Sequence record: PQ303785.1
Length of the DNA stretch: 64,000 bases
DNA from: Escherichia phage LYE-01
Direction: 5' to 3' (one strand)
In this document: positions 2,222 through 26,961 of the stretch, in pieces
Position numbering within the stretch: position 1 is the first letter of the stretch
Layout: each line of letters opens with the position of its first letter
Notes under the pieces: generated by a model
Database searches by the model: none
What the model was told of the DNA's origin: nothing
What the model saw: the letters and a program-made list of their open reading frames with translations, nothing else
Made by a program: the position numbers and the translations under genes

Positions 2222-2258
2222 GATATAATAGATCTATGAATTGAGCTAAGAGGTGAAA

Positions 2259-2816
2259 ATGTCAGAAACTAAGCCTAAATATAATTACGTAAACAATAAA
2301 GAGCTTTTACAAGCTATTATTGATTGGAAAACAGAATTAGCAAATAATAAAGACCCAAATAAAGTAGTTCGTCAGAATGATACTATCGGATTAGCCATTA
2401 TGCTTATTGCAGAAGGCTTATCTAAACGTTTCAACTTTTCAGGATACACCCAGTCTTGGAAACAAGAAATGATTGCAGATGGTATAGAAGCTTCTATTAA
2501 GGGGCTTCATAATTTTGATGAAACGAAATATAAAAACCCACATGCATATATAACTCAAGCTTGTTTTAATGCATTCGTCCAACGTATTAAAAAAGAACGT
2601 AAGGAAGTTGCAAAGAAATATAGTTACTTCGTTCACAATGTCTATGACAGTCGTGACGACGATATGGTTGCGTTAGTAGATGAAACTTTTATTCAAGACA
2701 TCTACGATAAAATGACGCATTACGAAGAATCAACCTATAGAACACCGGGGGCTGAAAAGAAAAGTGTTGTAGACGATTCTCCTAGTTTGGATTTTTTATA
2801 TGAGGCTAACGATTAA
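2259..2816 (+). CDS. 55: gp55, late-transcription sigma factor (185 aa)
   Basis: From ATG 2259 the product begins [23 protein letters not shown], which I recognise as T4 gp55; 185 aa. Confidence 0.9.
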
Positions 2817-3018
2817 CCTCTCCGGATTCTTGGAAGAAATACCTGAAGTTGAAGCTATTCCCTATTTACTTAAAATGTATCTCAGGGAAGTTTTAGCTCT
2901 TGACATTGATATTGATCCAGAAAATCCGTATGATACCGCTTTTAAATCTAATGGTGTAGAATTAAACTATCGGTATCATTTAACAGATGATGATTTTTAT
3001 TTTATATTAGAGAAATAA
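2800..3018 (+). CDS. hypothetical protein (72 aa)
   Basis: ORF overlapping gene 55 end. Confidence 0.35.
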
Positions 3019-3019
3019 T

Positions 3020-3337
3020 ATGACTGATAAACCCGAAATTAATGATGAAGTGGAAAAGCTTATTTCTTCTATTGAAGAAAAGAACCGTCTTGAAGCAGAA
3101 AGAAAAGCAAATAAGTTATTGTCTAAAAATAAACGCGAACTGAACCGTCTTTATAAACACGCTCAAATTGCAGCTGAAAACAATAATTTTGCTCAATACG
3201 AATATGCTATCAAGAAAAGTCGGGATATTCTAAAACAGCCATATAACGATGAACTCATTAGTATTCTTTGGAAGACTACTAGATCACAGATTGAGGATAT
3301 GATTGATGCTTACACACGTAAAATTCAAGCGTCTTAA
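3020..3337 (+). CDS. hypothetical protein (105 aa), predicted coiled coil
   Basis: ORF; K/E-rich helical sequence. Confidence 0.4.
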   Translation: MTDKPEINDEVEKLISSIEEKNRLEAERKANKLLSKNKRELNRLYKHAQIAAENNNFAQYEYAIKKSRDILKQPYNDELISILWKTTRSQIEDMIDAYTRKIQAS

Positions 3338-22296: not shown

Positions 22297-22590
22297 ATGA
22301 AAAAATTTGTTTTTGCTGCAATTTTTGCTTTAGCTTCTTGCGCTGCTCAGCCTGCTATGGCAGGTTATGATAAAGATTTGTGCGAATGGTCTATGACTGC
22401 AGATCAGACTGAGGTTGAAACTCAGATTGAAGCAGATATTATGAATATCGTTGAGCGTGATCGCCCTGAAATGAAAGCTGAAGTACAAAAACAGCTTAAG
22501 TCTGGTGGTGTAATGCAGTATAATTACGTTCTGTATTGTGATAAAAACTTCAATAATAAAAATATCATCGCTGAAGTGGTAGGTGAATAA
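22297..22590 (+). CDS. sp: Spackle-like periplasmic protein (97 aa, signal peptide)
   Basis: 97 aa; N-terminal signal peptide MKKFVFAAIFALASCAAQPAMA; position between 41 and 61. Confidence 0.6.
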   Translation: MKKFVFAAIFALASCAAQPAMAGYDKDLCEWSMTADQTEVETQIEADIMNIVERDRPEMKAEVQKQLKSGGVMQYNYVLYCDKNFNNKNIIAEVVGE

Positions 22591-23216
22591 TGCTTTATCA
22601 AATGCACAAGTGCAAAGACACGTACAAATATAAAGGTGCCCAGTGTTATATCATTAATCGTGAAAACGCAGGTCCAGGTCATTCGCATCAATCGCGGTTT
22701 GTATTCGTTAAAAACAACGAAATTATAGCAGTTGCTAATTACGTGCTTGTGACTAGTGATGTTAATCCGGTGCCTTTTACATATTATAATCTAATGGACT
22801 TGGCGTACGATTATAATTGGTTTAATCATGACACTTTGGCTCATATCGAAGGCGTAGGATTTGACATCTCTTACTCTAGTTACTCGTTGTGTCCTATGAG
22901 CCGAGCTCATAAAGAGCCTGAATATTTTTCATTTCGGCGGCGCGTAGACTTTAAACGCAGCACAGAGTATATTGGTGGAATCTTTGTTAAAGATAATCGA
23001 ATTACTCGCATTATTTATCCTTTGGGTTGTGGTCAAAAAGATATTGAGGTTGATTTAGACTTTACTGAAAACATCATTAATCATATTGCTTCTGTGTATT
23101 TTGATATTGATCACAAAATTGTAATATGCGGATATGAATTACCATCGGAAAAACAGTTTAAAGTAAAAGTTTCTATTGATGACCAAATTTTTAATGCTTT
23201 TATGAATAGAGGTTAA
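22590..23216 (+). CDS. hypothetical protein, 61.2-like position (208 aa)
   Basis: ATG overlaps sp stop (TAATG). Confidence 0.45.
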   Translation: MLYQMHKCKDTYKYKGAQCYIINRENAGPGHSHQSRFVFVKNNEIIAVANYVLVTSDVNPVPFTYYNLMDLAYDYNWFNHDTLAHIEGVGFDISYSSYSLCPMSRAHKEPEYFSFRRRVDFKRSTEYIGGIFVKDNRITRIIYPLGCGQKDIEVDLDFTENIINHIASVYFDIDHKIVICGYELPSEKQFKVKVSIDDQIFNAFMNRG

Positions 23217-23384: not shown

Positions 23385-24413
23385 ATGTCATCAATACCTT
23401 GGATTGATAATGAGTTTGCATACCGTGCGCTAGCTCATTTACCTAAATTCACACAAGTAAATAATAGTTCAACTTTTAAATTACGGTTTAGATGCCCTGT
23501 TTGTGGAGATTCAAAAACCGACCAAAATAAAGCCCGTGGATGGTATTATGGCGATAATAATGAAGGAAATATTCATTGTTATAATTGCAACTATCATGCA
23601 CCAATCGGAATATATTTAAAGGAGTTTGAACCCGATTTATATCGTGAGTATATCTTTGAAATAAGAAAAGAAAAAGGTAAAAGTCGTCCAGTAGAAAAAC
23701 CTAAAGAACTTCCTAAACAACCTGAGAAGAAAATAATTAAATCTCTTCCGTCATGTATTAGATTAGATAAACTGGCGGAAGACCATCCAATTATAAAATA
23801 CGTAAAAGCTCGCTGTATTCCAAAGGACAAATGGAAATATCTTTGGTTTACAACCGAATGGCCTAAATTAGTTAATAGCATAGTACCAGGAACATACAAA
23901 AAGGAAATACCTGAGCCTCGTCTTGTTATTCCAATTTATAATGCTAATGGAAAAGCTGAGTCTTTTCAAGGACGTGCATTAAAGAAAGATGCTCCTCAAA
24001 AATATATCACCATCAAAGCTTATCCTGAGGCAACAAAAATCTATGGTGTTGAACGGATTAAAGACGGTGATGTATATGTTCTAGAAGGACCTATAGATTC
24101 GCTTTTTATTGAAAATGGTATAGCTATTACGGGCGGTCAATTAGACCTAGAAATTGTTCCATTTAAAGATAGACGTGTATGGGTTTTAGATAATGAACCT
24201 CGTCACCCTGACACTATTAAACGAATGACTAAATTAGTTGATGCAGGAGAAAGGGTTATGTTTTGGGATAAATCTCCCTGGAAATCAAAAGATGTTAATG
24301 ATATGATTAGAAAGGAAGGTGCAACCCCTGAACAAATTATGGAATATATGAAAAATAATATTGCCCAAGGGCTGATGGCTAAAATGCGGCTATCTAAATA
24401 TGCTAAGATTTAA
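23385..24413 (+). CDS. 61: gp61 DNA primase (342 aa)
   Basis: Begins MSSIPWIDNEFAYRALAHLPKF; Zn-ribbon CPVCGDS...CYNC; 342 aa as T4 gp61. Confidence 0.9.
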   Translation: MSSIPWIDNEFAYRALAHLPKFTQVNNSSTFKLRFRCPVCGDSKTDQNKARGWYYGDNNEGNIHCYNCNYHAPIGIYLKEFEPDLYREYIFEIRKEKGKSRPVEKPKELPKQPEKKIIKSLPSCIRLDKLAEDHPIIKYVKARCIPKDKWKYLWFTTEWPKLVNSIVPGTYKKEIPEPRLVIPIYNANGKAESFQGRALKKDAPQKYITIKAYPEATKIYGVERIKDGDVYVLEGPIDSLFIENGIAITGGQLDLEIVPFKDRRVWVLDNEPRHPDTIKRMTKLVDAGERVMFWDKSPWKSKDVNDMIRKEGATPEQIMEYMKNNIAQGLMAKMRLSKYAKI

Positions 24414-24610
24414 ATTAACCCAACCAAAGCAAATGCTAAATCTACGAATGTATCAAGAGTAATTACTGGAATACTAACGCCATGAGCAATAGCAACTGGC
24501 GATAAAACAAAATTCCAAAGTAAAATTCCTATCATAGCAGAAATAGTAAAAGCTATACGTTTTTTATTACCTTTGATGGCATTAACAAGTGCCATTAATT
24601 TTTGTACCAT
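24410..24610 (-). CDS. hypothetical small two-TM membrane protein (66 aa), antisense to the early block
   Basis: ATG preceded by AGGAGG at 7 nt spacing; two hydrophobic helices; stop overlaps gene 61 stop tail-to-tail. Confidence 0.45.
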   Translation of the reverse strand: MVQKLMALVNAIKGNKKRIAFTISAMIGILLWNFVLSPVAIAHGVSIPVITLDTFVDLAFALVGLI

Positions 24611-24659
24611 GCGTCGTCCTCCTTTAAATTAAATATTTATCGCAAATTTTACAAAATTT

Positions 24660-24689
24660 GTTTACTTTCTCAGCTTGCTGTGGTATTAT
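24660..24689 (+). promoter_or_regulatory. T4-type early promoter (GTTTAC, 18 nt spacer, TG-extended TATTAT) driving ORF 24715
   Basis: TTTGTTTACTTTCTCAGCTTGCTGTGGTATTAT then CTGAGGATAAT SD leader. Confidence 0.55.
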
Positions 24690-24714: not shown

Positions 24715-26054
<1,340 letters not shown>

Positions 26055-26715: not shown

Positions 26716-26961
26716 ATGGCTAGTACTCGCGGTTATGTTAATATCAAAACGTTTGAGCAGAAATTAGATGGAAATAAGAAAATTGAAGGAAAGGAAATTT
26801 CTGTAGCTTTCCCTCTTTATTCTGACGTTCACAAAATTTCTGGCGCTCATTACCAGACATTCCCTTCAGAAAAAGCAGCATATACTACTGTATATGAAGA
26901 AAATCAACGTACTGAATGGATTGCCGCAAACGAAGATTTGTGGAAAGTAACTGGTGGTTAA
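26716..26961 (+). CDS. soc: Soc small outer capsid protein (81 aa)
   Basis: Begins MASTRGYVNIKTFEQKLDGNKKIEGKEISVAFPLY, recognised as T4 Soc. Confidence 0.85.
   Translation: MASTRGYVNIKTFEQKLDGNKKIEGKEISVAFPLYSDVHKISGAHYQTFPSEKAAYTTVYEENQRTEWIAANEDLWKVTGG

Follow-up and report, generated by a model that had tools for sequence, protein, structure and literature searches.

A conserved gene for a putative late inner-membrane microprotein convergent with the primase gene of T4-type phages

Organization of the locus

The 64,000-nucleotide stretch of Escherichia phage LYE-01 DNA considered here (PQ303785.1), referred to as the window, comes from a T4-type phage of the genus Tequatrovirus. This report concerns a 66-codon open reading frame (ORF) on the minus strand that converges on gene 61, the primase gene, and that is, judged by sequence comparison, a genuine conserved gene, probably for a small inner-membrane protein made late in infection. 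All positions are those of the window, and its plus strand corresponds to the one that bears the early genes of T4. An initial annotation, made from the letters alone, had described a 66-residue minus-strand ORF, an AGGAGG located 7 nt before its ATG, a tail-to-tail overlap of its stop codon with that of gene 61 and a late-promoter-like octamer farther upstream. Each of these was found again, with the exact spacing, at the positions listed below.

24410-24610, minus strand: ORF of the putative small membrane protein, 66 codons, with ATG at 24610-24608 and TAA at 24412-24410
24618-24623, minus strand: Shine-Dalgarno sequence AGGAGG, separated from the ATG by the 7-nt spacer acgacgc (direct reading of the sequence)
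24634-24641, minus strand: late-promoter-type box GATAAATA, 23 nt 5' of the ATG, matching TATAAATA at 7/8 positions with the mismatch at -13
24626-24630, minus strand: predicted late transcription start, from late-promoter geometry (PMC2988020)
24410-24413, both strands: TTAA, the interlocked stop codons (gene 61 TAA at 24411-24413, plus; small ORF TAA at 24412-24410, minus)
23385-24413, plus strand: gene 61, primase
24715-25275, plus strand: ORF186, 186 codons
25275-26054, plus strand: dam
from ~26100, plus strand: gene 56, dCTPase
26716-26961, plus strand: soc

The two stop codons share 2 nt and the coding regions overlap by 4 nt. The product of the small ORF is MVQKLMALVNAIKGNKKRIAFTISAMIGILLWNFVLSPVAIAHGVSIPVITLDTFVDLAFALVGLI, and the minus strand over its promoter and start region reads cGATAAATAtttaatttaaAGGAGGacgacgcATG. 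The initiation region was predicted to be unstructured, and a GGAG(G) Shine-Dalgarno core was located 5-8 nt from the ATG in every lineage examined. On the opposite, early-gene strand, a terminator-like hairpin (ATGGCA-ttaacaag-TGCCAT followed by TAATTTTTGT, 24573-24608, plus strand) lies within the 5' end of the small ORF, ~160 nt past the gene 61 stop. The hairpin is also present in T4, not in Mosigvirus, and could be a 3' end of gene 61 transcripts.

Selection and conservation

The ratio of nonsynonymous to synonymous substitution rates (dN/dS) of the small ORF was ~0.13-0.15 in comparisons with T4 and phage Lutter, with changes in the third codon position dominating; across the same genome pairs gene 61, dam and ORF186 gave 0.03-0.08. 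A megablast search with the 500 bp around the ORF matched 503 phage records at 90-99.6% identity, while tblastn with the 66-residue protein matched 692 phage records, 685 of them with at least 80% coverage. The tblastn matches with at least 80% identity came from 502 records, a number that tallies with the 501 records in which the primase is at least 95% identical to that of the window, so that essentially every Tequatrovirus carries the gene.

Homologues were also found well beyond the genus. Those of Mosigvirus were ~54% identical and that of Gaprivervirus VR7 46%, while two uncultured Tevenvirinae lineages (L015 and L018), with a nucleotide identity to any sequenced phage of at most 74-84%, have homologues that are 51% and 66% identical. 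A family profile made from six T-even-type sequences was scored against 441 candidate ORFs and picked out minus-strand ORFs at the same locus in Jiaodavirus KP179 (63 residues; 28.9 bits, E 2e-8) and Gelderlandvirus AKM_NP4 (69 residues; 32.7 bits, E 2e-9), the next best candidate scoring 3.3 bits. These two ORFs have in common the core WN[FY]xxxPxAxx[HY]GxxLPxxPL[DE]xV. Trp32, Asn33, Pro38, Gly44 and Pro48 were invariant in eight lineage representatives. The protein also gave a full-length match to phrog_2024 (E=1.9e-30, 105.5 bits), residues 2-66 aligning with positions 1-65 of the 65-position profile.

The locus itself is kept. In T4, T6, Lutter, EP01, Mosigvirus, VR7, L015, L018, KP179 and AKM_NP4 the gene is flanked by gene 61 on one side and by gene 56 (or dam) on the other, and it is read from the strand that these do not use. 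VR7 has in addition an unannotated tandem paralog (L006, NC_014792, 2701-2970, plus strand; 27.4 bits against the family profile), with a diverged and longer C-terminus whose coding sequence overlaps the 3' end of the primase gene in antisense over ~70 nt. Conservation of the ORF in related phages, a matter that the initial annotation had left for later checking, was thus examined, and the ORF was present in at least seven Tevenvirinae lineages.

The putative late promoter box

The heptamer ATAAATA, the core of the box, occurred at 11 sites on the two strands of the window, compared with 39 +/- 6 expected from dinucleotide-preserving shuffles, a ~3.5-fold depletion that suggests selection against stray late promoters. 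Because the core is depleted, the octamer upstream of the small ORF is no trivial match in A/T-rich DNA. The 11 sites comprised five copies of TATAAATA, four of AATAAATA and two of GATAAATA, and several were located immediately 5' of a Shine-Dalgarno sequence and ATG in recognisable late genes. In the same window, soc has the arrangement TATAAATA-N30-ATG and the holin gene t (218 residues, MAAPRIS...) has AATAAATA-N18-ATG; the small ORF, with GATAAATA-N23-ATG and AGGAGG, has the same design. The second copy of GATAAATA, at 23012-23019 on the minus strand, lies inside gene 61.2 (22590-23216, plus strand) and is directly followed by the ATG of a 34-codon antisense ORF.

A NATAAATA box was found 16-34 nt upstream of the gene in five of the at least seven Tevenvirinae lineages. 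The form GATAAATA is present in the window, T4, Lutter and KP179, AATAAATA in T6-like phages, Mosigvirus and L015, and CATAAATA in VR7 and, in addition to the first box, in KP179. In the record of phage Lutter the identical 8 bp carry a promoter annotation by the depositors. Directly downstream of the box there is an A/T-rich tttaatttaaa, a composition usual after late boxes. Farther upstream the lineages have no DNA in common; from the box onward the sequence is kept in three different contexts, the early-promoter region of ORF186 in the window, remnants of the ORF186 coding sequence in T4, and adjacency to gene 56 in T6-like phages. T4 late promoters have no -35 element (PMC2988020), and retention of the box while the upstream DNA has been replaced is what would be expected of such a promoter. 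In such promoters the TATAAATA box precedes the start site by roughly one helical turn, and single departures from it, mostly at -13, are tolerated. The mismatch falls at this tolerant position, since 9 of the 50 listed T4 late promoters carry A at -13, with 32 being perfect (PMC2988020). A T4 differential RNA sequencing preprint gives 150 phage transcription start sites, 22 of them antisense (10.1101/2024.04.04.588121).

The late expression proposed in the initial annotation held up to this extent: conservation of the box across five lineages indicates that the gene very probably has a late, gp55-type promoter. The unit resembles the T4 late units t and soc in its 8-bp box, A/T-rich start, short leader and strong Shine-Dalgarno sequence, and in needing no upstream sequence. 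This putative unit differs in the base at -13, which in this phage is G instead of T or A, and in facing against the surrounding early genes.

Features and predicted topology of the protein

Residues 19-41 form a strong predicted transmembrane segment (Kyte-Doolittle ~2.0), while residues 48-66 are also hydrophobic (Kyte-Doolittle 1.87) and include two conserved acidic residues, Asp53 and Asp57. An AlphaFold2 model, calculated from a 7-sequence alignment, had helices at 2-13, 16-42 and 52-63 and a mean pLDDT (predicted local distance difference test score) of 75. Two hydrophobic helices had been proposed initially. The one at 19-41 is a strong transmembrane candidate; the other, hydrophobic but acidic, appears in the model as a C-terminal helix of 12 residues (52-63).

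The N-terminus is basic and amphipathic (AIKGNKKR; Lys4, Lys13 and Lys16-Arg18), no basic residue follows Arg18, and the protein ends in ...DLAFALVGLI. By the positive-inside rule the basic N-terminus should be cytoplasmic. The transmembrane span contains an invariant Trp32-Asn33-aromatic motif at its middle together with the invariant Pro38, and it is followed by a tight turn (Ala-His-Gly ... Pro48) and by the C-terminal helix Leu-Asp-x-x-Val-Asp, short and amphipathic, with acidic residues at i and i+4. The conserved residues are thus almost all in or beside the membrane, including an asparagine in mid-membrane. Such an asparagine is a classical driver of helix-helix association.

The small membrane protein gene of the initial annotation is borne out: purifying selection, a conserved locus, a kept Shine-Dalgarno sequence and a box kept in all but two lineages speak for a gene, and the hydropathy and the distribution of charges for a membrane protein.

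Known relatives

The protein is an ordinary member of phrog_2024, a family that PHROGs lists without a function and whose members have database entries as hypothetical proteins. Members are annotated between genes 61 and 56 or dam in hundreds of T4-like genomes. Examples are those of RB32 (ORF030w), VR7 (VR7ORF033w, annotated as 'similar to RB32 ORF030w') and Lutter (F10A_0032). The family includes identical or near-identical sequences at the same locus and in the same orientation, and nothing sets the gene described here apart from it. Apart from two names, every family entry read in the databases says 'hypothetical protein'. The T6 protein is labelled 'putative head morphogenesis protein', the sole support being a similarity note to an identically named Shigella phage protein, and the label looks like an unsupported, transferred one. 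The orthologue of phage OE5505, A0A482MZV5, is named 'Holin' in UniRef and BFVD.

No relative of the 66-residue protein was found in Pfam, NCBIfam, PADLOC or the Protein Data Bank (PDB); the only PDB match, NqrE (E=0.022), was attributed to transmembrane composition. When 1.84 billion representative proteins were scanned in full with a hidden Markov model (HMM), the matches were confined to six clusters, each belonging to the protein's own family, and a word-indexed search of 5.8 billion proteins found the narrow family alone, with no bacterial relatives and no fusions. A fold search of BFVD gave the OE5505 orthologue and two 63-residue proteins, one of them from Karamvirus CIP9, with 24-29% identity. 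A gene of this 63-residue type was not located beside the primase gene of Karamvirus ZX13, nor by HMM in 148 of its 173 kb. No publication that describes the gene came up in the full-text library searched, and the locus is not discussed in the HIDEN-SEQ T4 transposon preprint.

Proposed function as a late inner-membrane microprotein

The reading that we favor, with a probability of roughly 0.6, is that the small ORF forms a late transcription unit of its own, lying within a cluster of early replication genes but reading against them, and encodes an inner-membrane microprotein. The gp55-type box GATAAATA and the A/T-rich start region would give rise to a transcript with a short leader carrying the strong Shine-Dalgarno sequence. 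With the box spanning -13 to -6, position +1 would fall near 24628 and the leader would be ~18 nt long. The 66-residue protein would be translated late in infection and would insert in the inner membrane, with its basic, amphipathic N-terminal helix on the cytoplasmic side, one transmembrane helix at approximately residues 19-42, a tight turn, and the acidic and hydrophobic C-terminal helix lying on, or dipping into, the periplasmic face. The protein most probably acts through contacts between helices, associating with further copies of itself or with some other phage or host membrane protein, a mode of action favored because the conserved residues sit in or near the membrane and include the mid-membrane asparagine. 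The gene, its conserved locus and its promoter-like and ribosome-binding signals are supported by sequence and comparison; from these we infer the timing, the topology and the mode of action.

As to the process that is served, we can offer only rough guesses. Control of late envelope events such as lysis timing or lysis inhibition is a guess of low probability, protection against superinfection or against a membrane-acting host defence is a somewhat more doubtful one, and the remainder of the probability goes to anything else.

Several observations weigh against this interpretation. The gene was not found at the primase locus in Karamvirus ZX13, Krischvirus KFS-EC, PhiK2046, Aeromonas Biquartavirus or Yersinia phage MHG19, and an HMM search found no homologue elsewhere in ZX13 within the 148 of 173 kb scanned (all but 100-125 kb). 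The RefSeq genome of T6 (NC_054907; L004, ~1501-1503) has ATT where all other genomes have ATG, and as a consequence its annotated gene begins at Met6. The absences and the T6 ATT together indicate that the gene is dispensable in some backgrounds. T6-like metagenomic contigs (L009-L011) retain the ATG, and the ATT may stem from a mutation in the laboratory strain or from an error in sequencing, or AUU may serve here as a rare start codon. There is no clean box in L018, which has TACAAATA 42 nt upstream, or in Gelderlandvirus, which has ATTAAATA, and the base at -13 is A, C or G, never the consensus T, in any lineage. Given the non-T base and the two lineages lacking a clean box, it is uncertain how strong the promoter is, and even whether it is used. 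The second hydrophobic segment may itself span the membrane as a genuine helix, making the protein a hairpin with both termini in the cytoplasm, and the conserved Pro-x-x-Ala-x-Ala|His-Gly resembles a signal-peptidase I site.

In place of the gene, Karamvirus ZX13 (L021) has a 94-residue hypothetical gene on the same strand as the primase gene, at 2223-2507 (plus), and in Krischvirus KFS-EC (L024) the primase gene is followed by an unannotated gap of ~590 bp (2527-3117).

Alternative explanations

That the ORF arose by chance in an intergenic spacer and has no function might be argued from its absence from the annotation of both T4 reference records and of the 1984 record X01416, and from the chance occurrence of other antisense ORFs of like length in this A/T-rich genome. 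Such an ORF would not be under purifying selection, conserved as a protein across genera with invariant residues, accompanied by a kept Shine-Dalgarno sequence and promoter box, duplicated in tandem in VR7 and nearly universal in Tequatrovirus; the comparative data have effectively refuted this explanation already, and we give it almost no weight. A second proposal is that the RNA is what is selected and the ORF is incidental, a late antisense transcript entering the 3' end of gene 61, or pairing with early read-through RNA, so as to lower primase. The genes are convergent with overlapping stop codons, the convergent orientation is conserved across lineages, the window has no intrinsic minus-strand terminator downstream of the ORF but only a long-range stem inside gene 61, and there are sites in T4 where each strand is known to be transcribed in its own period of infection (PMC2988020). 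The conserved layer, however, is the protein and not the nucleotides (46-54% identity across genera; dN/dS 0.13-0.15). The synonymous rate (dS) in the ORF was 0.22-0.25, against 0.11-0.28 in the flanking genes, level with dam and above gene 61; because it is not lower than that of the neighbours, there is no sign of constraint at the RNA level. The geometry also differs by lineage, the two coding regions overlapping by 4 nt in Tequatrovirus, Mosigvirus and Gelderlandvirus and by 14 nt in L015, while they are separated by 9 nt with a 9-bp hairpin and then a U-run in L018, by 18 nt with a GGGGC/GCCCC hairpin in KP179, and by ~200 nt, filled by the paralog, in VR7. Thus, the antisense regulation of gene 61 suggested initially is unsupported as a selected function, in view of the varying overlap, the hairpins and the unconstrained synonymous sites, and we consider it very unlikely. 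Continuation of late transcription into gene 61 is quite plausible, but it looks like a by-product. A type I toxin-antitoxin pair was also considered, but a dedicated small antisense RNA conserved with the toxin was not found, the sole overlapping partner being the primase mRNA and the geometry ranging from a 14-nt overlap to a distance of ~200 nt.

Two further explanations accept the protein and assign it another fate. The product could be a pre-protein in which residues 1-42 are a long signal peptide, cut by signal peptidase I after Ala-x-Ala, so that the acidic and hydrophobic remainder of 24 residues, HGVSIPVITLDTFVDLAFALVGLI, would reach the periplasm or the outer leaflet. The basic n-region, the hydrophobic core, proline at -5 and a small-x-small sequence before His/Asn/Tyr-Gly in most lineages (AIA, AVA, ALA, LVA, AST) are all consistent with cleavage, but the core, at ~19-23 residues, is longer than is usual where a signal peptide is cleaved, the invariant Trp-Asn-aromatic motif would be unusual in a mere export signal, and the AlphaFold2 model has one unbroken helix from 16 to 42; on balance we think cleavage unlikely. 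A lysis protein of the holin, pinholin or antiholin type would also be small, membrane-embedded and under a late promoter, it would account for the 'Holin' name of A0A482MZV5, and in BLASTP the signal-anchor-release segment of the T4 antiholin RI matched locally at 8/20 positions. This similarity was lost with the family profile, which gave only 2.4 bits, and is not kept in other lineages, so that it was rejected and no sequence relationship to RI was found. Moreover, the protein lacks a charged C-terminal tail, its charges being N-terminal, T4-type phages already have the holin T, the ORF lies away from t, e, rI and rIII, and all other database names are 'hypothetical protein'. A lysis protein of this type is accordingly an improbable identity for the product, somewhat less probable than a cleaved pre-protein. 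Class II holins and pinholins, such as S68 of phage 21, are alike in having ~65-70 residues and two hydrophobic segments, but the small protein has no charged C-terminal tail, dual-start motif or lysis cassette, and its second segment has two conserved acidic residues.

An inner-membrane microprotein of the kind favored here would have counterparts of a general sort among the T4 proteins Imm, RI and Ac, which are of a similar size class, inner-membrane location and accessory, non-essential character. Imm, which confers superinfection immunity, is made early, whereas the small ORF has a late box, and RI binds holin T through a globular domain in the periplasm, whereas the small protein has only ~24 residues past its transmembrane helix.

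The copy in T4 and its omission from the annotation

T4 itself carries the ORF, at NC_000866 17738-17938 (plus strand), with 92% identity; GATAAATA, AGGAGG and the overlap of 4 nt with gene 61 are all as in the window. It is unannotated in NC_000866, AF158101 and X01416 (1984), and in the two reference records, NC_000866 and AF158101, the 309-bp spacer between dam and gene 61 is left empty. The exact T4 protein has no NCBI accession and was found only in raw-read assemblies within a collection of 15 billion proteins.

T4 is the reference organism of the group, yet it is without an annotated gene that is found in nearly all Tequatrovirus and in at least four further genera. It will be missing from gene-by-gene resources built on the T4 annotation, such as arrays, proteomics databases, CRISPR interference libraries and transposon summaries made per gene. 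To enter the gene in the T4 annotation is a small, concrete correction, and the gene is a reasonable candidate for lysis timing, lysis inhibition and host-range assays. The new points are modest: 1) the omission from the T4 annotation, 2) family members in Jiaodavirus and Gelderlandvirus, 3) the conserved variant late box and 4) the case against antisense regulation. Beyond these the finding is ordinary, a hypothetical small protein that is annotated in relatives. It is conceivable, and in our estimate unlikely, that the protein is an overlooked, near-universal late envelope component of the T-even phages, for example a lysis-inhibition partner of T, RI and RIII or part of a superinfection response; if so, it would have been missed by decades of T4 genetics and by annotation-based screens, being unlisted in the reference T4 genome.

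ORF186 and the indel upstream of the gene

The initial annotation had treated the small ORF as part of an insertion. It is not, as T4, T6-like phages and Mosigvirus have the ORF without ORF186. The indel is the neighbouring ORF186, of which T4 keeps just the final codons, the early promoter being gone. Sequence comparison placed in T4 (locus L003, 3140-3240) a 549-bp deletion between the near-repeats ATCGCAAA (24639-24646) and ATCACAAA (25188-25195), with an endpoint 2-5 nt upstream of the late box. The full stretch was covered by ~146 of the 503 Tequatrovirus records.

ORF186 (24715-25275, plus strand), directly upstream of dam, belongs to phrog_8706 and has its own T4-early-type promoter, GTTTAC-N17-TATTAT, at 24661-24689. 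It contains the motif FDIVI...EIKHQ and gave weak matches to Pfam DpnII (E=0.0025) and PADLOC REase_II (E=5e-5). Its AlphaFold2 model (pLDDT 81, predicted template modelling score 0.79) matched restriction-endonuclease-fold nucleases in the PDB, among them VC1899, McrC, the Card1/Can2 nuclease domains, Mus81/Hef and BstEII. From the motif, the weak matches and this model ORF186 looks like a PD-(D/E)XK nuclease beside the Dam GATC methyltransferase, perhaps what is left of a GATC restriction-modification pair or else a working member of one.

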